Virus record (IMG/VR): IMGVR_UViG_3300025882_000423 | Reading direction: 5' to 3' (one strand) | Source of the DNA: an uncultured virus (IMG/VR IMGVR_UViG_3300025882_000423) | Taxonomy: Duplodnaviria; Heunggongvirae; Uroviricota; Caudoviricetes | Length of the DNA: 64,000 bases | In this document: positions 277 to 35,040 of the stretch, piece after piece | Numbering within the stretch: the first letter of the stretch is position 1 | Layout of the letters: each line of letters opens with the position of its first letter | Program-made: the position numbers and the translations under genes | The notes under the pieces: model-generated | What the model was told of the DNA's origin: nothing | Database searches by the model: none | The model's input: the letters and a program-made list of their open reading frames with translations, nothing else

Positions 277-1342
277 TTACGTTGATTTGCGTGACAATAT
301 CATCATTACCACCAACGACTAAATCTGGTCCATAAGAAGTTACTGTGTAAGTTAAAATATTCCCTGCTGTTGCATTGCTTACTGAGGCGATATTTCTTGC
401 GTATACATAATTATTACCCCAAGGATCTAATGTCGTACTAGCGGGCAGGGCAGGTAAGGCCGCAGCTATTGGATAGATAAAAGCTCCTGGTGCTCCTGCT
501 CTATTTCTGACTGCATCAGCGATGATGCTATTTTTAATATTAGACAAATCTTCACTAATAGAAGCGCGATAATCCCCAATTGTGCCATGTGTAGTAAGTC
601 CGGCAAGTAAATCCGGAGCGGACAATGGCAACAAAATATCATCAAATGGGTTAGCTACTGCATCAGAATAATCTTTAATGACAAACTTACTGTCATTATT
701 GGTGTTTTCAATTTCATCTGCTCCTGCTGGAGCAGCTTTTTGTATCCCGTCTCTATCGAATGCACCTGCACCATCAGCACCATGCGACATAACCACTACA
801 ACAACTGAACATGGATTATAGTTGCCACCGACAGGTGTGCAGTTATTTGTTTGATTGGCTCCGGCAGCCGGAGGTAATACGGCAGGAGTTCCTGAATGAG
901 TTGATATTGCCCCCTTTAAGCCAGCAATAGTTTCTGAAGTGGTATTGGTCGCATTCAAAGTGACCTGATACGTGAAACGGTTGTAATACCCATCTGTTCC
1001 ATTTTCATCAGATAAAGATAAGCTAGCCCATGGCACTATTCCAGTTGCAACTTGACCGTTGATGGTCGCGCCTGTGCAAGTCCCGGGTGTAGCGGCCTCC
1101 AATCCATAACCTGCTGCTCCAAGGGCTAAATTTGAAACAGCAGGGCACGGTAATCGATTGTTTCTTGCAATAAAGCTAATTAAAGCGAGTTTGATTGCTT
1201 CCTGTTTTTGTTTTGTGCTTGTAATTCTTGCCTGTGCTATCTGAGTTGAACCAGCCCCAAAAATTGCACCCATCAAAAGCCCCATGATGACAAGCACCAC
1301 AGATAACTCAATCAATGTGAAACCTTTTTGTCTAACTCTCAT
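239..1342 (-). CDS. type IV pilin / T2SS pseudopilin-like protein
   Basis: Class III signal motif QKG|FTLIEL followed by a hydrophobic helix; start MRVRQKG chosen at 1342. Confidence 0.85.
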   Translation of the reverse strand: MRVRQKGFTLIELSVVLVIMGLLMGAIFGAGSTQIAQARITSTKQKQEAIKLALISFIARNNRLPCPAVSNLALGAAGYGLEAATPGTCTGATINGQVATGIVPWASLSLSDENGTDGYYNRFTYQVTLNATNTTSETIAGLKGAISTHSGTPAVLPPAAGANQTNNCTPVGGNYNPCSVVVVVMSHGADGAGAFDRDGIQKAAPAGADEIENTNNDSKFVIKDYSDAVANPFDDILLPLSAPDLLAGLTTHGTIGDYRASISEDLSNIKNSIIADAVRNRAGAPGAFIYPIAAALPALPASTTLDPWGNNYVYARNIASVSNATAGNILTYTVTSYGPDLVVGGNDDIVTQINVNVLQDAFAKAGW

Positions 1343-1457
1343 ATTACTCAATAGTGATGGCGAAACTTGACAAATCATATAGCATTTTTAAAGTAACTAG
1401 AAATAATCTTTAAAATTTGCACGAATTAATAAATATTGATATTTGGTGATTATAAAC

Positions 1458-1480
1458 ATAATTATTGTTACAATAATTAT
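1458..1480. promoter_or_regulatory. 23-bp palindrome, putative operator of umuDC
   Basis: ATAATTATTGT-T-ACAATAATTAT directly before the ATG at 1481. Confidence 0.55.
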
Positions 1481-2107
1481 ATGGACACACCAAACTCTAA
1501 AGTGAGCAAAATAGCTCCCCGTAAAAATAAACCCGGCGCTGGCCGTAAGGTAGGCACTGGTAAGTTCGGTGAGCCAACCTCTGTGATTCGCATACCGACG
1601 AGTTTAGAATCTAACGTCAAAGATTTCCTAACCGCCTATCAACAAAAGACCAAGCAGACTAGCTATGGCGAAGACATAGAAATCATCCTACCCGCCATCG
1701 ACCCTCCCAAAGTCTTTCTGAATCTGTACTCTAGCCAAGTCCCTGCTGGCTTTCCCTCACCTGCTGATGATCATGTCGAGAAACGATTAGACCTCAATGA
1801 GTTTTTTCAAACGGATAAACCTTACGTATTTCTGGCTCGCGTGGGTGGTAACTCCCTCTTAGACCTCGGGATTATCAAAGGCGATATTGCCATTGTGGAT
1901 CGTTCCCTTCCCGTCCGAGTCGGTCAGCCCGTCATGGTAAGAATTAATGAAGAATTCACCATGAAAATCTTTTCCGTCACTAAGCAAAACAAACCCTTGT
2001 TACTCAAAGCTAATGAGGGTGACCCGACTATTGAAAACATCCTGATTACCGATGACATGGACTTTGAGATATGGGGTGTGATTACCGGTGCAGTGCATAA
2101 GTTTTAG
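1481..2107 (+). CDS. umuD: UmuD/LexA-family S24 peptidase with basic N-terminal extension
   Basis: VPAGFPSPA autocleavage motif, GNS catalytic Ser, TMK Lys, WGVIT end; directly upstream of umuC. Confidence 0.85.
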
Positions 2108-19809: not shown

Positions 19810-20883
19810 TTACGCACAGGCCTTTTGACTTTCTTGGCGTGACATAAACGTGACCATATCGATCACGTTAGCTGTACGTCCAGATTCAATCCTAGACGCG
19901 GCGACGGTTAAATGTTCCGTAGCAAACTTCGCATAACGATCCACCATCACGCGTGACTTCCAACCGCCTAAGTCTTTCAACTCATCACAGCTAGTGCCAG
20001 CCTGACGATGCCATGATGCCCATGTATGCCTTAGATCATGAAAACGAAAGTCAACAAGACTCGCTCTTTCAACTGCTGCATACCAAGCATTATTCGTGAC
20101 AGCGAATTTAATTGGATGCCCTTTGAATGTAAAACAGTATTTGGGATGTGTTCCTTGTAGCTGTTCTAACACTGCAATAGCATCTTGGTTTAGCGGTACA
20201 CCTCTCGGTGTTCCATTTTTGGTTTGATCTAGCCAAGCTGTTCTACGTTCTAAATCAACTCGACTCCACTCAAGACCCGTTATCTCCCTAGCTCGACAAC
20301 CAGTAGACAAAGCAAATTTGACCATAGCCGCTAAATGAGGTGGGCATTCCGCTATTAAACGATCTGCTTCCTCATGACTCAGCCAGCGGTCGCGTTCTGC
20401 TTCACCCGATAACAATCGGATTTTAGGCATACTATCAATCCACTGCCATTCATCACGTGCCATGCGGAGTATTGCACGAGTGAGAGCCAAATGACGGTTT
20501 ACTGTTGCAATCTTATTACCGCGCTTCAATTCCCCTTGTACAATGTTCCAAATAACGTCCCCGTTAATTTGGTTAAGCATCAAGTGGCCTAGATAAAAAT
20601 CTAACCTTCGGCAAATGCCCTGATAGCCTTTTACATCTCGCAAAGTTGTTTTAACTGCTAAAAATCTGACAACCGCTTCCTGCCATGAACGTTGAGGCTT
20701 AATTCCAAAATGATGCTCTCGATAGCTATCTAGCTTAATTTTTGCTAGGAATGCTTGTGCCTCATATTTGTCTTCAGTCCCAGTGCTTTGGCGTAATCGT
20801 TTGCCGTTAGGGAGCGTCGTACTAATCCACCAGTAGATTGAATCCTTTCTACGGTAGACTCCTTCTGAGGTTGGTTGGCGCAT
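19810..20883 (-). CDS. int: tyrosine integrase
   Basis: TGCRARE, TKNG, FHDLRHTWASW, LGGWKS..MV.RYA. Confidence 0.93.
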   Translation of the reverse strand: MRQPTSEGVYRRKDSIYWWISTTLPNGKRLRQSTGTEDKYEAQAFLAKIKLDSYREHHFGIKPQRSWQEAVVRFLAVKTTLRDVKGYQGICRRLDFYLGHLMLNQINGDVIWNIVQGELKRGNKIATVNRHLALTRAILRMARDEWQWIDSMPKIRLLSGEAERDRWLSHEEADRLIAECPPHLAAMVKFALSTGCRAREITGLEWSRVDLERRTAWLDQTKNGTPRGVPLNQDAIAVLEQLQGTHPKYCFTFKGHPIKFAVTNNAWYAAVERASLVDFRFHDLRHTWASWHRQAGTSCDELKDLGGWKSRVMVDRYAKFATEHLTVAASRIESGRTANVIDMVTFMSRQESQKACA

Positions 20884-21095
20884 TTAAAATCCTTTCCAAC
20901 TCGCCCTCGCTCGCTGCGCTTATATTCCTCTAACCAAAGATCTAAGTCAACTACATCATAAACCAGACGGCGACCAAACTTCACCGCTGGAATATCGAGT
21001 TCGGTTAAGAGCGTCACACCTATGCCTAGGTAAGACGCGGCTTCTTCTTTAGAAAGACAGCGAACTGGCGGTAAGGGCAAGTCATTGTCTTTCAT
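20745..21095 (-). CDS. excisionase-like HTH protein overlapping int
   Basis: LSKEEAASYLGIG...VKFGRRLVYD..DLDLWL. Confidence 0.75.
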   Translation of the reverse strand: MKDNDLPLPPVRCLSKEEAASYLGIGVTLLTELDIPAVKFGRRLVYDVVDLDLWLEEYKRSERGRVGKDFKCANQPQKESTVERIQSTGGLVRRSLTANDYAKALGLKTNMRHKHS

Positions 21096-21096
21096 G

Positions 21097-22416
21097 TTAT
21101 TCACCGTTGGATTGTTTTTCATATTCACGCATAGCGCGAATTTCTTCATCGACATAAGATTCATATATCTCAGCATTCACATCAATGGTATTAAACAATC
21201 TGGCTTTTAAAGCGACCTTTTCTTTCACGTAGGATTCAAAGGTAAGCCCCAAATTCATTGATTTATTATTAATGTGATGCGTTAGCGCTTCAAAGAAGTT
21301 ATGCACGGCTTCGTCATAGTTGGTATAGCCTTCTGCTGCCATCCAAGCAGCCAAAGTGCTAAATGTACGCCTGAGCATGGCATCATGATTTGGCACTCTG
21401 TTATTAGAAAAACGTGATTGCAAAGGCCCACCACTGGTTTCCCAATCTAAGGTGGCTAACGTAGCCCATAATGGGTGAATTGGCCACCGTGAGCGTGTTT
21501 GATCCTCTGGGTTTGGTATTGCGAGCCTAAGCCATTCAGTGGTGGCGTAAGACCATAATCCATTGAGATTAGCTAATACATCGGTGAGTTTAGCGAGGTT
21601 TTTCTGGACAAGCATTTCACGCTTGTATTCAAACTCCAAACGCCAAACAGGATCGTCCATTTGCCAGCCCATCATATGCCATAATGGAATGAGATAATCT
21701 TTGTGACTTTTAATGATTTCTAAGCGTTTATCGTAGAGACGACCAGCCATGACACCCCCTAGCCCGATTGCCCAGCCTGTAAAACGATTATCTACTGCAT
21801 AAGCACTCACAGCACTGGCATGGGTGACCCAAGCTTCACGACTCCATGCTTCCATATCTTGATATGAAATAAAGTCTACAAATAGATCGATACGACTGAC
21901 ATTCGCAGAGGATTCCAATACGCCTAATTCAGACAGGATGCTGGAGAGATGTTTTTCTGCTTGTTCTGGTGTTTTATAGGTTAGATACTCACTAGAAAAC
22001 TTTACATAGGCCATCGGAACAGCTTTATCTGGACGCGATAATTGAATGCGAAAGGCATTGTCCTCTAACACGTAATTAAACATGGAAGAGCCTTTGTCTT
22101 TTACCTCAAATAAATGATCCCCGACTTTGATTTGAGCCTTAGCTTGTTCTAGTGGGTTTTCTGATTGTGCTTGAGTTTTGAGTTGCTTAAGTTGTGCATT
22201 GATGTGTGGGTGAAGATTCCCTTGATAAGAGAGATATAAACTATCTACACCCCATCTTAAAAACTTAACTTCACCATTAATGCTGTTATTAGTAGCTGTG
22301 TTACTAGGCACCGCTACCGCTTCGCGGTCTCCGCTCTCGCCGCGCCCGAGCGCGCTGAGGTCGGCATCCCGTGAAGCGGTTTGAGGGTTTTGTGTGTTTT
22401 GGTTTTTCATATCCAT
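21097..22416 (-). CDS. Rep_trans-like rolling-circle replication initiator
   Basis: GVDSLYLS, SRIDLFVD, RLYDK, WRLEFE. Confidence 0.8.
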   Translation of the reverse strand: MDMKNQNTQNPQTASRDADLSALGRGESGDREAVAVPSNTATNNSINGEVKFLRWGVDSLYLSYQGNLHPHINAQLKQLKTQAQSENPLEQAKAQIKVGDHLFEVKDKGSSMFNYVLEDNAFRIQLSRPDKAVPMAYVKFSSEYLTYKTPEQAEKHLSSILSELGVLESSANVSRIDLFVDFISYQDMEAWSREAWVTHASAVSAYAVDNRFTGWAIGLGGVMAGRLYDKRLEIIKSHKDYLIPLWHMMGWQMDDPVWRLEFEYKREMLVQKNLAKLTDVLANLNGLWSYATTEWLRLAIPNPEDQTRSRWPIHPLWATLATLDWETSGGPLQSRFSNNRVPNHDAMLRRTFSTLAAWMAAEGYTNYDEAVHNFFEALTHHINNKSMNLGLTFESYVKEKVALKARLFNTIDVNAEIYESYVDEEIRAMREYEKQSNGE

Positions 22417-22503
22417 TCCTTAATGGTTACCAGCGTCCCAAATTGGTTACTGGAATGGATATGTATTATTTACATCTAAAAATTTAACTCCATGCAGTCA
22501 AAT

Positions 22504-23427
22504 TTAATTTGAGTGCATTGACACGCCGCCTGTCTTTTGGTAATTACGATAGCGTGCAAGTTGTTTAGTTACAGCATTAACATCCTCAATCCTGTTTTGC
22601 CAACGATCTAAACCTGCGGCATCACATAGGTCGAGTATCTCTTTGTGCGACAAGTCATCCAGCCAATCCAAAACCTCCAACATAGAGAATAAAAGATATA
22701 AACCAGGGTATCGAATCCGTCCGATCAAGTTTGGTTTAGCCTGATTGATGCCTAATTTTTCCAAGAACTCTTTTTCACCATCTGCTTGTGCTTTTTGATA
22801 TCTCTCTTTGAAGTAAGGATGGGCGACAAGTAAGTTCCGATCAACTCTGACCGCCTTGCAAAATGCCTCGTCATCACCGTTAATTGCTTTAGGAACTAGG
22901 GAGACCATCTTTTCACCATGTGCCATCAATCCAAAATAGTTATGCAACGAAAGTAAAATATGAATGAACAAGAAACTTATTCTCTCTAATTGCTGCTGCT
23001 GCTCATGAGAAGTTAAAGATTCAAATAAATTTTTCTGAGCAAGTTCCTCTTCTGGGGTTTCAGGCCATTTCCCTAAAAGATCATTAATCCATAAGGGATC
23101 ATTCAATAGCTCATCCGAAAAACTGACTACTTCTTGCAATTGAGCTGAAGGAGAAAGCTTTTTAAAATCGTCATTCCATTCCTTCAACCCTTCTTTTCCA
23201 AACAAAAATAGTAAAAGACATACATCAATTGTCATTTGGTCTTTATAAAAAGTGACGTAATAATCTAATTTGAGGTTGTCTTTTATTTTTCGAATTCGAT
23301 CTGGCCAGACAAGCCAGCCACCATCATAAGCTTTGAATTCGCTAAAAATATCCAAATAATCTGGAGCGGCTTTTTTGATTAACTTAATGACTTGAGGCTT
23401 TAAAAGGCGTGTTTTCGTGGTTTTCAA
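22504..23427 (-). CDS. hypothetical protein
   Basis: 307-aa ORF co-oriented with rep. Confidence 0.7.
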   Translation of the reverse strand: MKTTKTRLLKPQVIKLIKKAAPDYLDIFSEFKAYDGGWLVWPDRIRKIKDNLKLDYYVTFYKDQMTIDVCLLLFLFGKEGLKEWNDDFKKLSPSAQLQEVVSFSDELLNDPLWINDLLGKWPETPEEELAQKNLFESLTSHEQQQQLERISFLFIHILLSLHNYFGLMAHGEKMVSLVPKAINGDDEAFCKAVRVDRNLLVAHPYFKERYQKAQADGEKEFLEKLGINQAKPNLIGRIRYPGLYLLFSMLEVLDWLDDLSHKEILDLCDAAGLDRWQNRIEDVNAVTKQLARYRNYQKTGGVSMHSN

Positions 23428-23491
23428 TTAGTCACCAAATACAAAATAAAGAAACTCAAAAAAAACTTAATTCCGCTTGTTCAAATCTAAG

Positions 23492-24391
23492 CTAATAATT
23501 CCAAAATTTAAAAGGAGAGTTTGTCTTAGAGACCACTTTAGCTTTTAAAGTCCTTCGGCATCTTGGATAGTTTACGCAACCCCAGAATTGATCTAGTCCC
23601 CCTTCTTTTCTTAATTTCATCTTTACTCCACATTTAACACAAGTTGGCGTAGTAAAGTCACCCGATGTTGCCAATAAAAATAATCTGTCCTGAGCTTCTT
23701 TAGATAAGGCTTTAATTTTAGCCAACATACTTTTACCGTCAATAAGTTCCACATTGTTGTCTTTAGCAAACTGAATGGCTGCTTGATTAAAATTACTTGT
23801 GGTAATGAAATATCCTTTGAGAATTTTTTCGTGAAACATTACGCCTACAAGTTCCCTAATCAACTTTACACCAATGACCCCCGACCAACTTTTGCATTGA
23901 ACTAAGGCGGTTGATTTTTGTTGATCATTTTCATAAAGAAAAATATCTATGCCTCCATCGGCTCCAAGGGAAGTCTGCTTGTTCTTCATATTAATTTCGC
24001 TAAAATATGCGCTACAGAGATCTTCAAATCGCTTCCATTCAAGAGAGTAAAGAAGTTGGCTAGTCCATTCCCTTGAGATTGTCGTTTCAATAACTGGTTG
24101 CTCTAATAGCGAGACATGAGGTCTATTCGATGCAGTTTCTTGCGTTGAGACCAAAGGTTTAATAGTGTTATTGGCATTTACAATATTCTTAGAAGATGTT
24201 GCACCTTCTTGCTCCCTTGAAACGAAGTAAGCCAATAAAATTGTGAGGAACTGTAATAGACTTAACGGATAAGCGAACACTTGCAATAGCGTCCATATAT
24301 ACCAAAAAATAGTGACAATAAAACGATGTTTACCGCTAATAGCAATAGTAAAAAAAATAAAACCCTGCCAAGAAATTACAGCGAAGCTCAT
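23492..24391 (-). CDS. Mrr-family endonuclease with N-terminal TM segments and C-terminal Zn ribbon
   Basis: FEDLC, ADGGIDI, VQCKSW; CVKCG...FWGCVNYPRC. Confidence 0.85.
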   Translation of the reverse strand: MSFAVISWQGFIFFTIAISGKHRFIVTIFWYIWTLLQVFAYPLSLLQFLTILLAYFVSREQEGATSSKNIVNANNTIKPLVSTQETASNRPHVSLLEQPVIETTISREWTSQLLYSLEWKRFEDLCSAYFSEINMKNKQTSLGADGGIDIFLYENDQQKSTALVQCKSWSGVIGVKLIRELVGVMFHEKILKGYFITTSNFNQAAIQFAKDNNVELIDGKSMLAKIKALSKEAQDRLFLLATSGDFTTPTCVKCGVKMKLRKEGGLDQFWGCVNYPRCRRTLKAKVVSKTNSPFKFWNY

Positions 24392-25026
24392 TCGACTCCC
24401 TCAACGACACATACAATATTTGATTGGTTATCTATAGCTTAAAAAAAAGCAAAAATCTTACCAATAAAAATTACATGCATAAGTCATTAGATTACATAGC
24501 AATTTTATGTAAGCGATTAGCAGTAAAAATATGCTCGGGTTGTTTATAACCTAAAACTGGTTAAATACAACCAATTATGGTTCTGATAGGATTTGAATAT
24601 GAGTTGGACGCGACAATGACAGGTCACGACCCTTTTGGGACGATCAACTTTCTTATAAGCAGATAAGCTAAGGGACCGAGGCACGCTGTCCCAGATATCG
24701 AAACGAACGACTTGAGCGACTTTATTGATACATAACGTTTAAATTAAAGGGCTGGCTTTGGTCGGCTAGTAGTAGAAATAGGATGAATTAAACAACTAAA
24801 AAATGGCCTCAAATCCGCATAGAATATAGATAAACAGCAAAATTAAATAAACTTTGATTTCTGGATGATTTAAGGGGTAAATTACGCATTAAATACATCA
24901 ATAACTAAAATAAATCGGATAAATAATTAGTATTTAATTACCAAAGTCATTAGCATAAAAGACTTGCTTTGCATGCGCAACAGAGCGTTAATGTGTCATC
25001 AAATAAACATTAACGAGGTGATTAAA

Positions 25027-25263
25027 ATGGGTAAAAGAACAGATGCATTATTAGAATCAGAGCGCGAATATCAAACTAAAGTTTACACAGACTTTGATGC
25101 TGAAATGTCAATGCAAACGCTACCAAGCAGAATGCTAGCTCAAGTAATAAAAGGTGAAATTGATTTAAATGCGCTGGCTAAAGTAATATTAGCTAATCGC
25201 GGCCAAGACCAAAATGGCAACTGGGTTGGGTTCGATAAAGCCAAGCAAATACACGCTATTTAA
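25027..25263 (+). CDS. small hypothetical protein
   Basis: GAGGTG RBS before the ATG at 25027; convergent with the methylase over a hairpin near 25283-25305. Confidence 0.7.
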   Translation: MGKRTDALLESEREYQTKVYTDFDAEMSMQTLPSRMLAQVIKGEIDLNALAKVILANRGQDQNGNWVGFDKAKQIHAI

Positions 25264-25318
25264 ACAATCATTAAACACCATTTGAAGCCGCTTTAAAGCG
25301 GCTTTTATTTTGTCCTGG

Positions 25319-26098
25319 TCAAATACCATAATTAGCTATCAGCAGCTCAGTCACGGGCTTGTTGCTTTGCATATTAACGCTGTAGCTGGTTTGCACTTCT
25401 TTAATAAAATAACCATCAAAAAGCGTCCGAATTTGAGCCACATTATTGATGCTCACAAGCCATTTACCTTGGCAATTAATTAAAACGTCTCTAAGCCGCT
25501 CAAAATCGGTTTTATCAAATAAGCCTTTGCCATAGTCAGTTTCGCAATCCCAATATGGCGGGTCGATATAGAAAAACACACCTTTTCCATCGTAGCGTCT
25601 AATTAGCTCATGGTATGGCAGATTTTCAATGCTCACACGGCTTAAGCGTAGGTGCGCCTCGCTTAAATCCTCTTCAAGCCTGAGTAAATTTAAACGCGGC
25701 TTTGAGCTGTTGGCCACACCGTAACATTGGCCCACAATCTTTGCACCAAAAGCATTTTTAACTAAGTAATAAAATCGCGCTGCGCGTTGAATATCAGTCA
25801 GCGTGGTCTCATCGACTCGTTGCAATCTATCCCACTCATCACGCGAGACTAAGCACCATTTAAAGTAACGTACAAACTCTTCAAGATGGTTTTGAATGAC
25901 GCGATAGAGCGTGATTAAGTCGCCGTTGATGTCGTTTATCACTTCAACTTTGCTCGGCTCTTTACGAAAAAGCACCCACGCAGCACCTGCAAACACCTCT
26001 ACGTAACATGAATGTTTAGGTATTAAAGGGATGATAGTGCTGGTGAGTTTCGATTTACCACCGACCCATGCCAGTGGTGATTTTCTTTGTATTGCCAT
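25319..26098 (-). CDS. D12/Dam-class N6-adenine DNA methyltransferase in the mom position
   Basis: WVGGKS, YVEVFAG, INDIN, YIDPPY. Confidence 0.93.
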   Translation of the reverse strand: MAIQRKSPLAWVGGKSKLTSTIIPLIPKHSCYVEVFAGAAWVLFRKEPSKVEVINDINGDLITLYRVIQNHLEEFVRYFKWCLVSRDEWDRLQRVDETTLTDIQRAARFYYLVKNAFGAKIVGQCYGVANSSKPRLNLLRLEEDLSEAHLRLSRVSIENLPYHELIRRYDGKGVFFYIDPPYWDCETDYGKGLFDKTDFERLRDVLINCQGKWLVSINNVAQIRTLFDGYFIKEVQTSYSVNMQSNKPVTELLIANYGI

Positions 26099-26105
26099 GA
26101 TTGAT

Positions 26106-26137
26106 CCTATATTTAAGTATAGGTGCTCATGGCACTC
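26106..26137 (-). promoter_or_regulatory. Com-type target hairpin plus RBS-occluding stem
   Basis: GAGTGCCATGAGCAC overlapping CCTATA-CTTAAA-TATAGG, which covers the AGG of the RBS. Confidence 0.6.
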
Positions 26138-26139
26138 TG

Positions 26140-26547
26140 AAATATTAACTGCTTACGGCAGTTAGTCGGTCTTTTAGGTTATGGCACATAGACACACGCA
26201 CCCAGCTTTTGCATCCATCCCAAATTCGCCGCTGCGCTATTTGGTAAGGTGTTGGTACAGGGAGCTCTCTACCGGCTTTACTAACCAATCACTAATCCGC
26301 TTTGGAATCTACGAGCATTCCGATTCTCTGTCCTTAGCGGGGATGGCTTTCACCTTCGCGTTACTATGTACCCACATTACTAGCTACTTATTGTTCCGCT
26401 ATTTTTCAAGGCATCCCGCCTGCTAGAGTTAAATAGCTAGTAATGTGAATGCCCTGATAGATATTTAACACGGGCCATGCTCTGCATCTTTAGGTTCTAT
26501 CAGACCTTATATTATTGAAGGCTTTGCAGCGCCCTCTCTCGGGTATT
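26140..26547 (-). ncRNA. candidate large structured ncRNA
   Basis: No ORF of 60 aa or more on the sense strand; several nested helices (see findings). Confidence 0.6.
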
Positions 26548-26739
26548 CTATGCTTCTTTAATCACCAAATATCGAGTGCTGGTGATATAAGTCTCTTGGC
26601 CTGTAATGTCGCACGGGTTATTTAAAACCTGTTCACCGACCAGCACATCTGGCTCGCCACCGCTGCCTTTATCCCATGTTTGCACAAGCACTTTATAGCC
26701 AGCTGTGTCTGCGTTCTCAATTCGTACTCGTTTTGTCAT
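26548..26739 (-). CDS. 63-aa hypothetical protein
   Basis: AGGAG RBS; overlaps the com 3' end. Confidence 0.75.
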   Translation of the reverse strand: MTKRVRIENADTAGYKVLVQTWDKGSGGEPDVLVGEQVLNNPCDITGQETYITSTRYLVIKEA

Positions 26740-26878
26740 GATTGCTCCTAAAATTGTTAATGTTTCCGCACCTTGGGCATTTAATACTGAGCTGCTTTAC
26801 TTCACCCTCGGCTAGCTTTTTGTTGCATTTACTACACCTAAAATCTACTCGGTACTGCTTATCCTTTGTGTTGCTCAT
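26717..26878 (-). CDS. com: Com-family zinc-finger translational regulator (53 aa, not in the ORF track)
   Basis: Manual translation MSNTKDKQYRVDFRCSKCNKKLAEGEVKQLSIKCPRCGNINNFRSNHDKTSTN. Confidence 0.85.
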   Translation of the reverse strand: MSNTKDKQYRVDFRCSKCNKKLAEGEVKQLSIKCPRCGNINNFRSNHDKTSTN

Positions 26879-26997
26879 ACGGTCACCCTTATAATGACCT
26901 TGCCGACGTCGGCAGCAGGGTCTTTGGTTGATCCGTAGTCTGTTTACGGTGAGACGGGTTTTTTAGCGGTTGCTGCCGCTATTGCACTCGCCCTGTT

Positions 26998-27279
26998 TTA
27001 TTCACTTCTATATTCTGTCGGCAGTTGCCGCCTTTTTTTCTCGCTGCTATAAGCCTCTTGGCAGTGATTTTTTTGCCAAAAAAACACACTATTGATCACT
27101 TTAACTGCGATAAAAAACCGTCTTTTTTTGTGCTGATTGCGCCATGCGCGGGCACTTAATGACTCATCTGCCCAGCCCCATAGTGCGGTATTGATAAGTT
27201 GGTCTATTGCCAGCAAAATTTGCACTTTATTGCTGTGTAACAGCAATATTGCAAGTGCTATGAGTAAAAGTATCATCAT
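26998..27279 (-). CDS. phage hypothetical protein
   Basis: AIDQLIN..LWGWADESLSARAWR; follows the tail-fibre chaperone. Confidence 0.7.
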   Translation of the reverse strand: MMILLLIALAILLLHSNKVQILLAIDQLINTALWGWADESLSARAWRNQHKKRRFFIAVKVINSVFFWQKNHCQEAYSSEKKRRQLPTEYRSE

Positions 27280-27731
27280 GCTGGGTACGCGGGCATCATT
27301 GCCACGGCCTCTGCTGGTGTGAGCATGGGTGAAGTGCCTGCAATCACTTGGTCTCTATAATCATCTGCCGTCACCCAAACGCTTACCTCCCAATTACCAA
27401 AGGTTATTGCGGTGGTTTGATAGGCATTTTGCCAGCCCGCATACTGAATAACAGAGTCGCCACCGCTAAAGCCAAGCTCGCGTGCTTTAGTATTTATCGC
27501 GGCTTGTAGCGCAAGGCGTACTTGCTCAAACTGGGCTTGCAATGTTGGAGCAGGCGGGTTAATAGCAATTGGCAAACCAGTGTTATCATCAAAAACGATG
27601 TTTTTACCGATTTTGTTATCTGCCATGAGCGCTGCATGCTGTGCATCTGTTATTTCAATGGCATCTTCAGGCCGCGTGCTATGAATCTGATCATTGTAAA
27701 AACCACTGTTTAATTTAGAAAAATACCACAT
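27276..27731 (-). CDS. tail fibre assembly-like protein
   Basis: YFSK..GFY...PEDAIEIT..QH..L; lies after the fibre gene. Confidence 0.75.
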   Translation of the reverse strand: MWYFSKLNSGFYNDQIHSTRPEDAIEITDAQHAALMADNKIGKNIVFDDNTGLPIAINPPAPTLQAQFEQVRLALQAAINTKARELGFSGGDSVIQYAGWQNAYQTTAITFGNWEVSVWVTADDYRDQVIAGTSPMLTPAEAVAMMPAYPA

Positions 27732-27739
27732 ACGTGCTC

Positions 27740-28249
27740 CTAGTTAATTGTACCAATCGCTATCCAGCTAAATGATGCAGATGTATCTTTATATAAACTG
27801 AAACTGCTCCCCCCATTTAAGCCGGTTACCCACTGGTTGCTAAATATGCCAGTTGTTTGAGTTGCGTATGCGCTGGCTGTTACGCTAATCACCACATCAA
27901 ATGCGATTGGATAATTGACGGTAATGACTCCAGTGCTGGCCGATGAATGTAAGCCAAATTGCAATACAAATTTCTTTTTTGTGTTAGTTACTGCGTCATA
28001 AAACGGGAATATCATATAGCCCGGATTCGCGGCCACGCCGGCAGCGATTGCAATAGACTTTAATGCCTGCAGTAGTTGCGCATTATTGGCTTTGTTAAGC
28101 GTAATGCCTGCCGCTTCAATAACGTTAACTATTTCAGCTTGCACCGCATTAAGCCAAGCAGCATCTACAATACTTGCTGGTGTTGAAGTAGATGGATTTT
28201 CATTGACGAAAGTATTGTTTAAGTGGCCTGCGCCATCAGTTTTGTGCAT
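27740..28249 (-). CDS. very short tail fibre (Mu S-type N-terminal anchor)
   Basis: AAWLNAVQAEIVNVIEAAG...QLLQAL; C-terminal LQFG..YPIAF..WIAIG; 169 aa. Confidence 0.75.
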   Translation of the reverse strand: MHKTDGAGHLNNTFVNENPSTSTPASIVDAAWLNAVQAEIVNVIEAAGITLNKANNAQLLQALKSIAIAAGVAANPGYMIFPFYDAVTNTKKKFVLQFGLHSSASTGVITVNYPIAFDVVISVTASAYATQTTGIFSNQWVTGLNGGSSFSLYKDTSASFSWIAIGTIN

Positions 28250-28823
28250 AAAAAACCTCTCCACCGACACCGGTGATATCTTCAAACCATAAGTAAACAT
28301 GCGCTTGCTTAAATGCTGCTAGCGCATTAAAAATAATGTCTGGATTAACAACTGTTTTGTAGTATCTGACACGTAAAATAAATCGTGACCGTGCGCTGTA
28401 TAGGCGGTCACCTGCTTTGCTACCCGCTCTAAATGGGCCAACCAAGTGATCAATCTGCACCAATGGCACATTAAACTGTGTGCTATTAACATTGGCTGAA
28501 AATAAGCGGTCGCCTGCTTTACTGCCTGCTGTAAAGGGTTTGCGCGGTATGCTTTCTACCACGCCCGCATCTTGTAGGGCTTTTAAGGCCACGGCACGGT
28601 AGGCATCGATATGCCAGTTTGATTGTGCTGGTTTATGCAGCTCAATGGCGCGATCCATCACCATCTGCAAATCACTCTCAAGGCGATATGGCTCTTGCGC
28701 AAAGGCCATCATCAAATAATCGCCAAAGCCGGATTCTGTCCACTTCCATGCGTCGCCCGGTGGCAGTAATGCCAGCATCGCATCGGCAAATTGGCGTGCG
28801 GTATGTTTGATAAGCTGCATCAT
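28236..28823 (-). CDS. baseplate protein (Mu gp48-like)
   Basis: ALLPPGDAW, FKQAH; follows gp47. Confidence 0.7.
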   Translation of the reverse strand: MMQLIKHTARQFADAMLALLPPGDAWKWTESGFGDYLMMAFAQEPYRLESDLQMVMDRAIELHKPAQSNWHIDAYRAVALKALQDAGVVESIPRKPFTAGSKAGDRLFSANVNSTQFNVPLVQIDHLVGPFRAGSKAGDRLYSARSRFILRVRYYKTVVNPDIIFNALAAFKQAHVYLWFEDITGVGGEVFYAQN

Positions 28824-29869
28824 ACGAAGCTTAAGCCTCCGAGCACTAGCACTTCACCTGCTGCAACGCTGATATTAGCCAGCGGTGCATTGCGCACATA
28901 TTGCGTTGTTACTGTTGCGATTGCTGCATCAAGTTCGGCCATTAGCAACACAGATGTTTCTGAAAACTCAGCCAATATGACGTTGTTAATTGCCGTGTTG
29001 ATTGCGGCGCGATTAGGTGCGGTATCTACTGCAGAATCTAGGTCTAATGTGATGTTGACTATTTTTGGCGTAGGTGCGCTGACATAAATATCTGCGGTAG
29101 CTGGCGCAACGCCCGGGCTGGCAAGATAAGCGGTAACAGCATCTAGCACCGCCTGAGTGGGTAATCTATCAACCAAATTGTTGCATATTGGCCTAATGAC
29201 TACGCTGCCAAGGCCAAGTGTATGTGTTTGTACCAAGGCAGCGCTTACGCTTGGGTGTGCTGACTTTGCCCATGCTTTATAGTCATTTATTTTGCCGCTG
29301 CGTGCGCCTTGGCTCACCACAACTTGCCACTCATCCACCACGCGTGCACGCCAAGCGTGTACATCTTCCAAATCTGCGCCGCCTGTTAATCCGCTTGAAG
29401 CTACTGTTGCGTTACTATCTACACCAGCAATTGGGTCAACAAGCGTTAATACTTGATTTGCTGATAAGTTGGTATTTGCACCTGCTGTAGTGCAGGTGAC
29501 CGAGATATTGTTATTGCCAGCTGCTAATGTGCTAGCGACTGAGGTGATGTAATCAAAGCCGTTGTCACCTCTAAAAACCGCACCTGCGAGCACTATAGCG
29601 CCTACGTTGCCCGTGACAATTATTTGACCGCTAGATGGAAAATCAGTGAGACGATTGACGGCATACAAAGCAGCCCAATCATAAAGGCGCTCTAAATCAC
29701 AAGTAAGTGGCGAGCATTGTGCATCTACCCACTCTACATGACCATGTAAGCTATGAATAACTTTAGCCCAAGTGACAGCTAAAGCATCGCGTAGCGCAGT
29801 GACAAAATCGGTTAAGTCAGACTCGATACGTGTTTTTAATTGTGTAAATGTCGGTCTAACGTAACTCAT
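28820..29869 (-). CDS. baseplate J / Mu gp47
   Basis: RPTF..L, GGADLED...RAR, DYKAWA. Confidence 0.9.
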   Translation of the reverse strand: MSYVRPTFTQLKTRIESDLTDFVTALRDALAVTWAKVIHSLHGHVEWVDAQCSPLTCDLERLYDWAALYAVNRLTDFPSSGQIIVTGNVGAIVLAGAVFRGDNGFDYITSVASTLAAGNNNISVTCTTAGANTNLSANQVLTLVDPIAGVDSNATVASSGLTGGADLEDVHAWRARVVDEWQVVVSQGARSGKINDYKAWAKSAHPSVSAALVQTHTLGLGSVVIRPICNNLVDRLPTQAVLDAVTAYLASPGVAPATADIYVSAPTPKIVNITLDLDSAVDTAPNRAAINTAINNVILAEFSETSVLLMAELDAAIATVTTQYVRNAPLANISVAAGEVLVLGGLSFV

Positions 29870-29883
29870 TTTGCTCGCTTTAA

Positions 29884-30381
29884 TTAGTCATCGAACCACC
29901 TGAAGTCCCAAGTGCTATCCCACACGTACATGCCTGTTGCATCAATAGTTGCTTGATCTGGCAAGGTGAAGCGGGATAACTCAAAACGTATGCCATCATA
30001 TAACCCTGCAATGTCGAGTACGACACGCGAAACGTTTCGCAGTCTATCGTCATAGGTTTGTGGTAAGACTTCGATAACATGTACATCTGTGAGTAGTGGA
30101 TCTTGCTCTTCAAGCGCGTGGGCAACCATATTGAGTGTTTCTAGCCGTGCAGCATCGCTTAACGCTTGGCGCCGCACATACCATAGCCCCGTGCCAAGCT
30201 GTGGATCAAACCACCAGCCGCGTTGGTCTAGCTGGTCATCCACTCGGCCTTCAGGCGCGCGTTGATCAGTAAACAATGTGGTGTAGATAATGGTGAGCAG
30301 CCGTACCTTTTTAATATCATCGTCTTTGGTTTCATAAGCCAAATCAAACTGGCCGTCGGCTGTTGCAATGATTTTAAGCAT
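29884..30381 (-). CDS. Mu gp46-like baseplate protein
   Basis: LFTDQRA, RGWW, GTGLW. Confidence 0.85.
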   Translation of the reverse strand: MLKIIATADGQFDLAYETKDDDIKKVRLLTIIYTTLFTDQRAPEGRVDDQLDQRGWWFDPQLGTGLWYVRRQALSDAARLETLNMVAHALEEQDPLLTDVHVIEVLPQTYDDRLRNVSRVVLDIAGLYDGIRFELSRFTLPDQATIDATGMYVWDSTWDFRWFDD

Positions 30382-30383
30382 GA

Positions 30384-30878
30384 TTAAATCTCTGGTGGCT
30401 GGTGGTTATGATGTGGTCGAGGCTGGTCGTTATCTTGCCAAGTTTCAACACCTAAGCCGTCCCATTTTTGGCCTTGGCCGTTTACATCAAATTTATATTC
30501 GCTGTCGGCGTGTAACTTGATTTTATCTGCGCGCACTTCAAATGTTTTGCTGGTTTCTATCAGTATGCGGTCACGCTTGATATGTACTTTTTGACCCTGG
30601 TCGTCATGTAGTGCCACCTCGCCATCTTCTAGTGTTAGCGTGTAGCGTTTGTCGCCTTGCACTAAGCATAATCCATGTGTGCGGTCACCCGATGGAAATA
30701 CAATAAAAGCTTGGCAACCTGACTTAGGATGATAACTGAAGCCGTAAGGCTGAATTCGGTCAATATTGTCTAGCACTTCAGCGTCTAGCGCTTTCACTTG
30801 CACTTTATGCGTAGTAATGATCACGCCAGTGGCTTGCGCAATAACGAGCTGTAATCTATTCCAGATTTGATTGATCAT
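30384..30878 (-). CDS. Mu gp45-like baseplate spike
   Basis: QPYGF, GEVALHDDQG, C-terminal HHNH. Confidence 0.88.
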   Translation of the reverse strand: MINQIWNRLQLVIAQATGVIITTHKVQVKALDAEVLDNIDRIQPYGFSYHPKSGCQAFIVFPSGDRTHGLCLVQGDKRYTLTLEDGEVALHDDQGQKVHIKRDRILIETSKTFEVRADKIKLHADSEYKFDVNGQGQKWDGLGVETWQDNDQPRPHHNHQPPEI

Positions 30879-31917
30879 ACTTCACCACTTTTTTAGCTTT
30901 ACGTTTTGCCGCACTTTTTTTCTTGCTCTGCTCAGCTATACCAACAAATGCGTTGCGATGCATGACGGTCATGTGGGTGAGCGTGCCTTGCTTGTCATCT
31001 TGGCTAAAGTGCAGATCACCGATTAACATCACGCTGTCAATATTTTCGGTTGGTATGACCACGCGCACTTGGGTATTGATCTGCCAAGGCTGCCAGTTGC
31101 CAGCAGTCTCATGGCCCCAGCCGACCAGTGTTAGTTCAATGCGGTGCGCTCTGGCCAACCTGCGGTTACGCTCAAGCTCGGCGCGCCGTTGCAGCGCGCC
31201 AAGTGCGTTACCGTGTCTGTCAGCAACAATATGCATTGGTCTAAAGTAACTTAGGCCCGCATCAATCATCACACCTTTGCGAGAGGTGTTGGCTGCGTAA
31301 TCAAAACTCTTGACGTAATACTCGCTAAAGCGCAAACGGTACTCATCGGTAACCGCATAAGACTTGATATTGTCGCCAAGTACCAGCGTGGCCACTGGGG
31401 CATTGTTATCTGGCTCGGCAATTTTTAAACCACCATCAGGCAATGAGTAAATAAGCACATTACCTGCGCGTGCCGCATTTAAAATCGCATTGGCTGGGCT
31501 TTCAGCCTGCATAGAAAAATCTGGCACCAGCGGCGTAGTTTTAGGCGCATTTAAAGGCACTTTAAATAGCGTACAAATGCGCTTCACAATCTCGCCAAGC
31601 ATCATTTTTTTTAATGTGATGCTGTATTGGCAATCTATCAATTCACGCGCCAGCGATCGTGCGCTAAAACGCACAGTATGTGAATCAGCATCCACATTGC
31701 GAGTGAGTATATCGGCACGCACTGTGCTGATGAGTAAATTGTTTAAGTATATTTGCGCCACAGAGTTGGCATCAAGTTTGATATGGTTATCGTCACCTGT
31801 GGTAGTCAGACCCAAATCAACACTAGTGGCGAGATCATCAATGCTGGTATGAATACTGACTTGCTGCCAGTATGCATATTTAACGCCATTTAAGCGCACC
31901 TCAACAACATTATCCAT
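30856..31917 (-). CDS. Mu gpP-like baseplate hub
   Basis: ELIDC, RFSEYYV, PWQINTQV; position. Confidence 0.85.
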   Translation of the reverse strand: MDNVVEVRLNGVKYAYWQQVSIHTSIDDLATSVDLGLTTTGDDNHIKLDANSVAQIYLNNLLISTVRADILTRNVDADSHTVRFSARSLARELIDCQYSITLKKMMLGEIVKRICTLFKVPLNAPKTTPLVPDFSMQAESPANAILNAARAGNVLIYSLPDGGLKIAEPDNNAPVATLVLGDNIKSYAVTDEYRLRFSEYYVKSFDYAANTSRKGVMIDAGLSYFRPMHIVADRHGNALGALQRRAELERNRRLARAHRIELTLVGWGHETAGNWQPWQINTQVRVVIPTENIDSVMLIGDLHFSQDDKQGTLTHMTVMHRNAFVGIAEQSKKKSAAKRKAKKVVKYDQSNLE

Positions 31918-33076
31918 ATACAGTGCCTTGCACAAACAGCGGATGTGCAACATTGTTTTGTGCGTTAAAACTGGCCTCATCTATGCCCATTTGATAAGCA
32001 AGCACAACAGCAGGCAATGGGTTAACAACGCTGCGTGATGTAGTTGGTGTTAAGTCCTGATCTAGCAACACATCAATTAAAGCTGCTCTAGCATCAATGG
32101 CTTGGTTAAATACATCATCACTCATGCTTGGCAGCTGCGTATCAATCGCCTTAATCACTTTAACCAGCACTAAGTCACGGCTTTGTGCATCAGTGTAATC
32201 TGCAATGGCGAGCTGTGCGGCACCTGCCACAAGTAAGTTAGTGCGCAGCGCAGCATCTGCCTGCGCATTTAATTTAAAATTGGCATTGAGTGCCTCTGGC
32301 GCTGTGCTTTTTTCAATATCTGCTGGGCTAAGCGCTGAGTTAATAATGCGTGTTACCGCATTGGCACGGGTGCTGCTGGTGATGTTGCCGATAAAATCTG
32401 CACCAGTGACCACACTATCCACCGCGCTCAATAATGCATCAGCATACTGTTGCGGCGTTTGCAGCAGCGTTGCAATTTCTGTTTTGACTTCGGTAATGAG
32501 GCCAAGCCCGGCATTGACCCATTGCAGTGGTAATGAAGCCACTGAAATAGCCTTGCGTATATGCTCAATGTGCTGCTGCGCCTCTGCCACATAAGCGGTG
32601 AGCGTGTTGTTATTCATCGGCTGCAAGTCAAAGTCATCAACTATGGCTTGGCTGAGTGCGTTGGTTTTGTCGATTGCCACATCCACTTTATCTACTGCAG
32701 GTACGCTAGGTGCACGGCCGCCTGGTACGAAGGTTATCTTAATTGTACAGAAACCGCCTTGCTCATTGGTTTCTGTGCGTGACCACTCATGCGCACGCAC
32801 CCACACTTGACCTAGCCACGGATGTTGCAACCAAGCTGCACCCGGTATATTTAGCTTGGCATTAAAGCCGTTTGCTTCTAAATCATAGTCTGGCCCTATA
32901 AAATAAGCGCTAATGCTGTAGTCATTCGACTTGTTGCCGAAGTCTTCTATTTCAGGATCGTCGCGTTTTGGATATTCATGCACCACAAGGCGGTGACCAT
33001 AGCGCGTATCATGGTCGTCGGTGAGGAATTCAAAGCCGCGAAATGAAGCTTTTTTTAAACGATCTTGCCAAGCCAT
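31910..33076 (-). CDS. Mu gpN-like DNA circularisation protein
   Basis: WQDRLKKASFRG, HEYP, LQHPWLG, HPLFV. Confidence 0.9.
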   Translation of the reverse strand: MAWQDRLKKASFRGFEFLTDDHDTRYGHRLVVHEYPKRDDPEIEDFGNKSNDYSISAYFIGPDYDLEANGFNAKLNIPGAAWLQHPWLGQVWVRAHEWSRTETNEQGGFCTIKITFVPGGRAPSVPAVDKVDVAIDKTNALSQAIVDDFDLQPMNNNTLTAYVAEAQQHIEHIRKAISVASLPLQWVNAGLGLITEVKTEIATLLQTPQQYADALLSAVDSVVTGADFIGNITSSTRANAVTRIINSALSPADIEKSTAPEALNANFKLNAQADAALRTNLLVAGAAQLAIADYTDAQSRDLVLVKVIKAIDTQLPSMSDDVFNQAIDARAALIDVLLDQDLTPTTSRSVVNPLPAVVLAYQMGIDEASFNAQNNVAHPLFVQGTVYG

Positions 33077-35040
33077 TATGGAATACCCCACACACTGCCT
33101 GTTTGTACCCAATTTTTAACTGGGCCTGCAGTATTGGTTGTTTGTGATGTGGCTTTAAGGCCATCTGCCAGTTGCACTTTTACAGTAGTTTCGACTTTAG
33201 CTGGCTCAGTTTTAAACGTTTGCATAACCGCATTTCGAGCCTCTTCGCTAAACGGTAACATGAGTGAAGCTGCTGCAAACCCTATACCATTGCCAATGCC
33301 TAAGCCTGTTTTTTTATCAAAAGCCTCAATAGCAGGGTTAATTACTTTATCACCGAATTGAAACCCAGCAAATGCAGCGGCGGCAAGCGGTACTACCCTT
33401 GCAAGGCCTGATAAGCTGCCAGTGATTGTAGAAGCAACCCCAGCTAATCCGCTTGCACCACTGGTGCCAAGTGCAAGGCTTGCCAACCCTGATGCTGTAG
33501 CAACAGCCGTTAATCCAGCGGTGGCCAATGTGCCTGCGCCAAGTAAAAATGGGTGTTTTGTAGCTAACTCTTCAAAGTTATCAGCTACTTTGCCAATCGT
33601 TGGTGTTAACTCATCCATCGCGGTTTTTTGCGCTGCCGCTGCTGCTTGCTCTGCCGCGCGCACCTTTACGCTGGGAATTGTTTGCATAAACGCATAGTTG
33701 CTATCATTAGCGCCAAATTCAGTACGGTTTTTACTTACCTCTGTATTTACTCGATCTACAACAGATTTGTTGCGCATGCCCATCAATGCGCCTACTGCCT
33801 GCATGTCTTGAAAATATTTACCGATGGTTGTGCCTTCCGACAGTGCAGTAATAGATTTTAAAATCTCTTCTTGCTGCGTTCTATCTTTTGTTGATTGCAG
33901 CTTGGTAATCGCGGCTTTCAGTTGAGGGTTCTTGGCAGCTTCTTTATCAATTAAGCCCATCCACGCATCAACAGCATCTACGCCTTGCATGCGTTTTTTC
34001 ATTAAGAAGCCAGTTAAGTCTGTGCCAGTTTGTTTTTCAAAATCCTTAGCAGTGTCAGAGCTAGATAACTTGGCCAGCAAGTTACGCACATTGTTACCAG
34101 CTTCGTCAGTAGTGCCGCTAGTCAGAATAGCGGCTTGGTTCATGGTGAGCACTTTTTGCAAGCCATTCAAGCCTAGCATGCCAGATTTACCTGCTAGCGG
34201 TAATTGCTGTGCTAACCATTTAGCCTGGTCTTTAATTTCAAAACCACCCGCTTGGCCAGAGGCTGTGACCATATTAAGCGCGGTTTTAAGCTCGCGGTCA
34301 TTAGACACAATGCCTTGACCAACTAACACGCTAGACAAGTTTGCAATATCTAATGCGTTAGCGTTAGCACCGGTGGCGGTGCGCATGACTGTAGGTAAAA
34401 ACTTGATTGACCTATCATAGCCAAGCGTGCCTTTAGCAATTAAAGCGTCTAGCGCTTCAGCGGCTTGATCGCGCGTGCCACCTCCTACACCTGATTGAAC
34501 AGACCTATTAATAATGGCCTCTAGTTCTTTCATGCCACGTTGTTTGCCAGCCAAATCTCGTCCAGAAAAGGCCGTGTTTGCCATACCAGCCAAACGCTCA
34601 TCAAAGCTCATGGCTTGATCAGCAGCACGCTTGATGACATAGCCACCTGCGGCAATCCCAGCTGTTGCAGTCATTAGACGATTTAACCCGCTATAGCCAT
34701 CTTTTGCACCTTTAAGCTCATTTCTCAGCTCACGCAGTTTTTTAATCTCAGCGTCTTTTGCCCGTGCTAATTCGCGGCTACTTGCTAGCCCAGCCCGCGC
34801 TAATCTGTTATAAGCGGCCTCTGTTTGCTGCATTTCACGGCGCACCGCGTGCTCGCTGCGAATGCCAAGCTGCTCACGCGCCTGCGACATTTTTGCAAAA
34901 GCTTGTGTGCTTTTGGTTGCAAACTGCTCGTTATTGCGCAGCGCGTTTTTGCTTAGTCTATCCAGATTTTGCTGGACGGACTTAAGCCCGCCACTGGCGA
35001 GGTCTTTAAGGGTTAAGCGTAGTTCGACGGTGGTTGACAT
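33076..35040 (-). CDS. tail tape measure protein
   Basis: LKDLASG N-terminus, Ala/Gly-rich helical sequence, GGFEIKD; precedes gpN. Confidence 0.88.
   Translation of the reverse strand: MSTTVELRLTLKDLASGGLKSVQQNLDRLSKNALRNNEQFATKSTQAFAKMSQAREQLGIRSEHAVRREMQQTEAAYNRLARAGLASSRELARAKDAEIKKLRELRNELKGAKDGYSGLNRLMTATAGIAAGGYVIKRAADQAMSFDERLAGMANTAFSGRDLAGKQRGMKELEAIINRSVQSGVGGGTRDQAAEALDALIAKGTLGYDRSIKFLPTVMRTATGANANALDIANLSSVLVGQGIVSNDRELKTALNMVTASGQAGGFEIKDQAKWLAQQLPLAGKSGMLGLNGLQKVLTMNQAAILTSGTTDEAGNNVRNLLAKLSSSDTAKDFEKQTGTDLTGFLMKKRMQGVDAVDAWMGLIDKEAAKNPQLKAAITKLQSTKDRTQQEEILKSITALSEGTTIGKYFQDMQAVGALMGMRNKSVVDRVNTEVSKNRTEFGANDSNYAFMQTIPSVKVRAAEQAAAAAQKTAMDELTPTIGKVADNFEELATKHPFLLGAGTLATAGLTAVATASGLASLALGTSGASGLAGVASTITGSLSGLARVVPLAAAAFAGFQFGDKVINPAIEAFDKKTGLGIGNGIGFAAASLMLPFSEEARNAVMQTFKTEPAKVETTVKVQLADGLKATSQTTNTAGPVKNWVQTGSVWGIP

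Follow-up and report, generated by a model that had tools for sequence, protein, structure and literature searches.

A predicted Com-responsive leader and probable exchangeable structured RNA units between com and an adenine methylase gene of a Mu-like prophage

The DNA analyzed here (64,000 nucleotides from an uncultured virus, referred to as the window) contains a Mu-like prophage of a Methylophilaceae host in which a com-like gene and an adenine DNA methylase gene are separated by a 63-amino-acid (63-aa) open reading frame and a non-coding gap. We found that this gap is made up of four units, A to D, which are listed in Table 1. Unit D, the leader of the methylase gene, is very likely a translation switch of the Mu type that responds to Com, as judged from its predicted folds, its alignment, and a motif known from Mu. 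Units A, B, and C are exchangeable units that are probably constrained RNA structures, and the core of unit B belongs to an undescribed phage RNA motif that has no match in Rfam. On the wider reading we are evenly divided: the gap may be four juxtaposed RNA elements of the late com-operon transcript and not one large RNA, with A to C as accessory cassettes.

Table 1. Genes, units, and predicted helices between the com-like gene and the methylase gene (positions in the window)
Feature	Position	Strand	Remarks
Com-like zinc ribbon gene (53 aa), presumed translational activator	26878..26717	-	Pfam Zn_ribbon_Com PF10122, E 8.4e-10, 38.4 bits (cut-off 22.9)
63-aa gene	26739..26548	-	5' end overlaps com 3' end by 23 bases
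Non-coding gap, 449 nt	26547..26099	-	Between 63-aa ORF and methylase
Unit A	26547-26449	-	Gap bases 1-99; also in L040, L130, L044
Unit B	26448-26248	-	Gap bases 100-300; also in L040, L130, L036, L041
Unit B, first part: 19-pair hairpin including 14-bp stem, variable tip	26368..26448	-	z -5.75, 0/200 shuffles
Unit B core: closing helix, long irregular helix, inner hairpins	26246..26379	-	Covariance model, 129 bits
Unit C	26247-26146	-	Gap bases 301-402; also in L036 only, upstream of B there
Unit D	26145-26093	-	Gap bases 403-449; in nearly all close relatives
Unit D, small hairpin	26135-26132/26126-26123	-	4 pairs
Unit D, alternative long helix	26134-26127/26100-26093	-	Covers AUG 26098-26096
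Unit D, inner hairpin	26123-26118/26111-26106	-	Contains ribosome site
D12-class Dam-type N6-adenine DNA methyltransferase	26098..25319	-	Pfam PF02086, E 1.4e-30; PHROG 56, E 1.2e-89

All of these features lie on the minus strand. In the direction of transcription, a tail-fiber assembly gene and a 93-aa gene precede the com-like gene, which is followed by the 63-aa ORF, the gap, and the D12 methylase. The com-like gene also matches PHROG 6417, a translational regulator (E 3.6e-13). The methylase gene occupies the position that mom has in Mu, where it closes the late region and encodes a DNA-modification enzyme other than Mom, and its closest relatives (76 to 87% identity) come from Methylotenera and Methylophilus assemblies. 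An identical copy of the region is present in a second viral record, positions 20000-34000 are absent from the nearest host genome, and a search of isolated-phage records with an 851-base region gave no match. Just past the methylase, inside the stretch missing from the nearest host genome, a minus-strand gene (23492-24391) encodes a protein of 299 aa in which an Mrr-type restriction endonuclease domain (E 4e-28) is combined with a topoisomerase-type zinc ribbon. On the other side of the region, a perfect 14-base palindrome (26901-26914) stands about 30 bases upstream of the com start, beside a minus-strand TATAAG-like hexamer, and might be bound by a late activator of the C/Mor type.

We examined unit D as the leader of the methylase. 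Its minimum free energy fold combines a long helix across the start codon with an inner hairpin that contains the ribosome site, and the four phage leaders that were folded all gave strongly negative z scores (-4.13 in the window and -4.52, -4.29, and -3.35 in the others). There are 17 distinct versions of unit D among the relatives, 16 of which were aligned. The long helix is 93.8% paired across these 16 and the small hairpin is 100% paired, each with two pairs changed on both sides, and alignment column 12 covaries with each of its two alternative partners. The small hairpin of the window has CC-AU-GAG and then GAG-CA-CC in its loop and 3' side, a sequence that fits both CC(N)2-3GAG and GAG(N)2CC. 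These are the motifs selected for Mu Com, preferred when they sit in a hairpin loop beside an inhibitory structure (PMC6483171). In most relatives, the first CC of the Com-type motif is replaced by UC.

These features suggest a switch with two states. In the first, an upstream 8-base stretch would pair with the start-codon region while the inner hairpin holds the ribosome site, and translation would be blocked. In the second, the same upstream bases would form the 4-pair hairpin that bears the Mu Com recognition motif, and Com bound to this hairpin would release the AUG. We infer Com binding from the Mu motif, the Com encoded here being a distant relative.

The arrangement resembles com-mom of phage Mu in that a Mu-like late region ends with a DNA-modification gene preceded by a gene for a Com-family zinc ribbon, and in that the start codon and ribosome site are predicted to be sequestered in a stem beside a short hairpin whose loop fits CC(N)2-3GAG. 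An adenine methylase following com in place of mom is itself already on record for B3, FluMu, and Pnm1 (PMC3299994). There are two differences. In Mu, com overlaps mom by 50 bases, whereas here 618 bases, comprising another gene and three RNA units, lie between com and its presumed target. Furthermore, the Com-type hairpin and the inhibitory helix of unit D use the same bases and would exclude each other as two states, while for Mu neighboring hairpins are described. A second, unrelated type of leader takes the place of D in six relatives, about 80 bases upstream of the methylase start; in it, a conserved hairpin precedes a stem in which the ribosome-site region is paired, and the Com-type motif is missing.

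We compared the gap with the DNA upstream of methylase relatives encoded in 53 viral, 39 genomic, and 80 metagenomic loci, and we also ran BLAST with the gap against 203 loci. Gap bases were numbered from the first base past the stop codon of the 63-aa gene, and three loci were treated as duplicates (L127 of L036, L134 of L041, and L136 of L044). The BLAST comparison shows that the units are shared piecemeal and that their order differs among relatives. In the window they adjoin one another without spacers. In the relatives that have them, units A and B come after a Gp49-like gene instead of the 63-aa gene; this holds for A in L040, L130, and L044.

In seven relatives, com stands directly before the conserved methylase leader, and in five of these it abuts or overlaps the regulated gene, which is not the case here. 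Therefore, the ancestral layout was com, operator, and methylase, as in Mu. In other relatives, the same slot holds small protein genes instead. By these sequence comparisons, the space between com and its putative operator is a cargo slot, occupied here by one small gene and three non-coding units. Other non-coding stretches, 100 to 360 bases long, lie between com or its cargo and unit D in L035, L037, L043, L085, and L038; some are common to L043 and L085 and others to L038 and L043, so further types of cassette probably exist.

A preliminary description of this DNA had proposed that a cassette made of a small protein and a large RNA was inserted between com and its target. Part of this proposal held: the material is inserted, it has conserved RNA structure, and it lacks an Rfam match. 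The pairing of the small protein with the RNA did not hold. The same description took the gap to be a single multi-domain RNA of about 400 nucleotides, and here our results point elsewhere, to a chain of separable, reordered units whose domain-tying long-range helices are not conserved. Those helices, of 9 bp (26364-26372/26183-26191) and 7 bp (26340-26346/26215-26221), are both complementary in the window, as had been noticed, and neither is conserved among relatives. L040 and L130 lack the partner unit, and in L036 it lies on the opposite side, where the bases are no longer complementary.

The local elements of that description are present. The perfect 14-bp stem (26373-26386/26434-26447) grows to 19 pairs in the fold, and the 8-bp stem (26454-26461/26496-26503) and the 7-bp hairpin (26146-26164) were also recovered. 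The longest sense ORF of the gap has 47 aa, so none reaches 60 aa. An antisense ORF of 81 aa matches nothing in Pfam, and gaps of 1 and 2 bases interrupt its alignment with the relatives, so its reading frame is not conserved. The suspected absence of a group I or group II intron core was borne out, as there is no Rfam intron match and the flanking genes are complete.

Next, we compared the folding of the gap with that of shuffled controls, a check on which the idea of a structured RNA had been made to depend. The minus strand as a whole is more stable than its shuffles (z = -2.93, 0 of 100 as good), and the plus strand is as well (z = -2.32, 1 of 100 as good). Taken by part, the excess stability belongs only to the long hairpin of unit B (Table 1) and to the methylase leader (1 of 200 shuffles). 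For unit A (z -1.20), the B core (z -0.07), and unit C (z +0.17), stability does not exceed that of shuffles. What supports the B core and unit C is covariation and not folding energy.

No Rfam covariance model gives a credible match in the gap. Over 5 kb, five weak matches were obtained and none of them lay in the gap. When the gap was searched at E <= 10, there were four matches (E 1.3 to 7.3), all to microRNA or lncRNA families and far under thresholds. At E <= 1, the loci that carry the B core (L212, L216, L040, L036, L041, and L130) gave no match either. These same searches returned no model of GOLLD or ROOL, the large phage RNAs to which kinship had been suggested. No tRNA or tmRNA was found in positions 24000-28000 or in L212 or L216.

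Unit B begins with the long hairpin. Its stem in the window differs entirely in sequence from that of L040 and pairs in both, and between L040 and L130 a T-to-C change in one arm is matched by an A-to-G change in the other. The tips of this hairpin are unrelated among L040, L130, L036, and L041. The rest of unit B is 94 to 96% identical among L040, L036, and L041 by BLAST.

In the B core, the internal loops are invariant, and the closing helix and inner hairpins vary. The closing helix occurs in four different sequences, all of them complementary. In addition to the methylase loci, the core recurs in three unrelated viral contigs: L212 and L216, which were found with a pattern from the invariant 3' strand, and L287, which was found with a looser pattern and the covariance model (31 bits, E 1.8e-6). 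In an alignment of eight sequences from five lineages, 95.4% of 152 cells are paired and 9 of 19 pairs are changed on both sides; this alignment was fitted to the model and so leans toward the structure, and four of the eight sequences are 94 to 96% alike. None of 500 shuffles reached the observed pairing, and partners slid out of register paired at 36 to 47%. An independent run with MAFFT and RNAalifold on seven sequences gave the same helices.

The strand on which the core would act was considered in two ways. The alignment contains 22 G-U cells and 3 A-C cells, so the core pairs better on the strand of the genes (95.4%) than on the other (82.9%). By free energy the outcome was mixed, with the sense strand favored in 6 of 11 stretches and the antisense strand in 5. 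The 5' strand of the closing helix shares 4 to 5 bases with the 3' arm of the big hairpin. Because of this overlap, the closing helix and the big hairpin compete and are never both fully formed.

The distribution of the core is narrow in what we searched. An exact 19-mer of the B core occurs in only five known contigs, and one from unit C occurs in three. The looser 3' pattern returned 109 stretches, of which 100 were searched with covariance model R1 and 9 with model R2, and L287 was the only new member. Two other loci, L264 and L278 (19.9 bits), were rejected since their flanks do not pair. Five new loci obtained from two combined patterns were also set aside; none passed the model and none had the closing helix. 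Model R2 had no match in 76 other loci. A 47-base query from the core returned three rows from isolated-phage records, all at chance level (E = 3), and a literature search for the core motif string returned only unrelated probe sequences.

Units A and C were compared in fewer sequences. Unit A starts 2 bases past the stop codon of the 63-aa gene and consists of two hairpins, one of which includes the 8-bp stem; among its four sequences, 3 of 22 predicted pairs are changed on both sides. Unit C consists of three hairpins, including the 7-bp hairpin, and is common to L036 and its duplicate; between its two sequences, 3 of 27 predicted pairs are changed on both sides, and two of these are adjacent. 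Although these samples are very small, the paired double changes are suggestive of RNA structure in both units.

To see the region in sequencing data, six runs were found, three of which are DNA runs that contain the stretch; two of these three may be where it comes from. Four runs were compared with the region. In one RNA run, consisting of activated-sludge metatranscriptome contigs, a single 182-nucleotide contig is identical to 26178-26359 and covers parts of the B core and unit C; it shows neither strand, ends, nor level, and it could come from DNA in an RNA library. No contig of this run lies on com, the 63-aa gene, or the methylase, and in contig data missing cover is no evidence. Two DNA runs contain relatives in which diverged pieces of the B core are joined to other sequence.

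We then considered where the B core lies in relation to genes. It is on the same strand as the next gene in all five lineages. In L287 and in the methylase relatives L040, L130, L036, and L041 it is just upstream of that gene's start or leader, and in the window unit C puts about 100 nucleotides between the core and the methylase leader. The core of L287 is flanked by a Phage_antitermQ gene (PF06530, E 2e-6) on its upstream side and by genes for an HNH nuclease and a small terminase on the other, and about 22 bases separate its 3' end from the start of the HNH gene. The untranslated stretches that hold the core in L212 and L216 are long, and there the distance from the core to the next gene is 150 to 340 bases (about 335 nucleotides in L212). 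In L212 the core, in a minimal form of 93 nucleotides, opens a 427-nucleotide non-coding stretch (876-1302, minus strand; fold z -3.05). A VRR-NUC gene lies downstream, and so does a gene that was read as a small terminase subunit by eye and not by family search. In L216 the core is contained in a 784-nucleotide non-coding stretch (704-1487, minus strand; fold z -4.67), which may be a large multi-domain phage RNA.

Two further observations concern these long stretches. A segment of the one in L216 resembles a tRNA T-arm and 3' acceptor strand; it has no Rfam match, and ARAGORN reported no tRNA or tmRNA. The stretches of L212 and L216 also share other short motifs (positions 84-155 and 329-357 of the L212 gap) in a different order, which suggests modular assembly there too.

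The position and orientation of the core are the basis for reading it, and units A to C with it, as a cis-acting leader element, a reading that we hold tentatively and at a little under even weight. Recombination would have brought A, B, and C into the variable slot that separates com from its operator. The core would bind a conserved factor through its invariant internal loops, whether this is a protein, RNA polymerase, the ribosome, or some small ligand, and would thereby adjust how strongly the late message downstream is expressed or how stable it is. The core was also compared with a riboswitch. It is closed by a helix, its internal loops do not vary, and an upstream pairing competes with the closing helix; the genes downstream are not of one kind (the methylase, the HNH nuclease, and unassigned genes) and suggest no ligand.

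Alternatively, A, B, and C could be independent trans-acting small RNAs or decoys, either cut from the late transcript or made in the lysogen. They would have host or rival-phage targets, for example as anti-defense RNAs, and the tip of the B hairpin would set their specificity. The shuffling of the units like cassettes, in a slot beside an anti-restriction methylase, fits such a role, as do the unrelated tips on cores that are 94 to 96% identical and the RNA-library contig that spans B and C. However, the minus strand of the gap has no promoter-like site, no unit is followed by a convincing terminator, and there are no known processing sites. No unit has complementarity to the rest of the 64-kb window that exceeds that of shuffles, and in other phages the core is found in gene leaders. 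Given these points, trans action is possible but unlikely.

It could also be argued that only D is functional and that the remainder of the gap is decaying former cargo genes, the shared stretches reflecting recent common ancestry. Protein genes do occupy this slot in relatives, A, the B core, and C are thermodynamically ordinary, and only close relatives are known to have A and C. Decay does not sit well with a core that is found again in three unrelated phage settings and whose helices have undergone compensatory change; nor do the copies of A and of C, which differ by paired double changes among others, or the lack of any frame kept across relatives, favor former genes. We consider this explanation very unlikely.

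The least probable of the named alternatives, to which we give hardly any weight, is that the units are MITE-like non-autonomous mobile DNA, with closing helices as terminal inverted repeats and conservation as the mark of recent spread: an inverted repeat does close each unit, and units are present or absent between close relatives and joined head to tail without spacers, but each is single copy with no second copy in the window, A to C occur in none of 301 Methylophilaceae genomes (a 30-base piece of D is in one) and model R2 finds nothing in 151 genomes of the class, the junctions show no target-site duplication, the surplus of G-U relative to A-C cells points to single-stranded RNA of one strand, and it is the internal loops that have invariant bases while the helices vary. 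The balance goes to readings other than cis action, trans action, mobile DNA, and debris.

Returning to the cis-acting leader, we compared it with known phage elements. Like GOLLD and ROOL, the gap is phage borne, non-coding, and rich in helices, and in L216 and L212 the B core lies inside long structured stretches; unlike them, the gap in the window consists of separable units instead of one conserved large fold. The put element of phage HK022, located just downstream of a promoter, is an RNA that while still nascent renders RNA polymerase resistant to terminators. On this reading, the B core is like put in acting in cis from a phage leader early in an operon and in having conserved irregular helices, and in L287 it follows a gene for a Q antiterminator. 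It differs from put in having one long irregular helix, a terminal closing helix, and variable inner hairpins, a comparison made by description only; put has about 70 nucleotides and two stem-loops in a V shape (PMC9378689). The slot as a whole resembles phage morons and cargo slots, where a variable insert between conserved genes differs among close relatives, and departs from them in that part of the cargo is non-coding structured RNA and not protein genes.

Finally, we examined the 63-aa protein, which had been proposed as the partner of the RNA in a ribonucleoprotein. It is a member of a real phage family (158 proteins at E <= 1e-3 among 161 candidates) that has no assignment in Pfam or PHROG. 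Its structure is confidently modeled as three strands (pLDDT 89.6), and a fold comparison gave no informative match. Relatives of the protein occur in 30 viral loci at many different phage positions. Downstream of these 30, RNA units were present only in two loci that are identical copies of this phage. Because the relatives do not carry the RNA units, a ribonucleoprotein or protein-RNA cassette is unsupported. From this distribution, we think that the 63-aa protein is the product of a cargo gene unrelated to the RNA units. The overlap of this gene with com (26717-26739), its start lying 23 bases ahead of the com stop, is at the overlap position of mom in Mu.

The com-methylase arrangement, together with the proposed switch, extends the textbook control circuit of Mu to phages of methylotrophs and offers a clean, testable two-state model. 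It also appears that part of the variable cargo of this phage is structured RNA and that one such unit, which has no name, recurs near the late genes of unrelated phages. At its most speculative, and quite unlikely in our estimation, the B core would represent a new class of phage leader RNA whose partner is universal (RNA polymerase, the ribosome, or some metabolite). Phages would then trade units A, B, and C as RNA "morons" with the B tip as a swappable specificity element, and the same kit would have built the larger assemblies in L212 and L216. If a partner of the B core is found, the core would be a new cis-acting RNA element in the control of phage late genes, and non-coding cassettes would be exchanged between phages in the way that accessory genes are.
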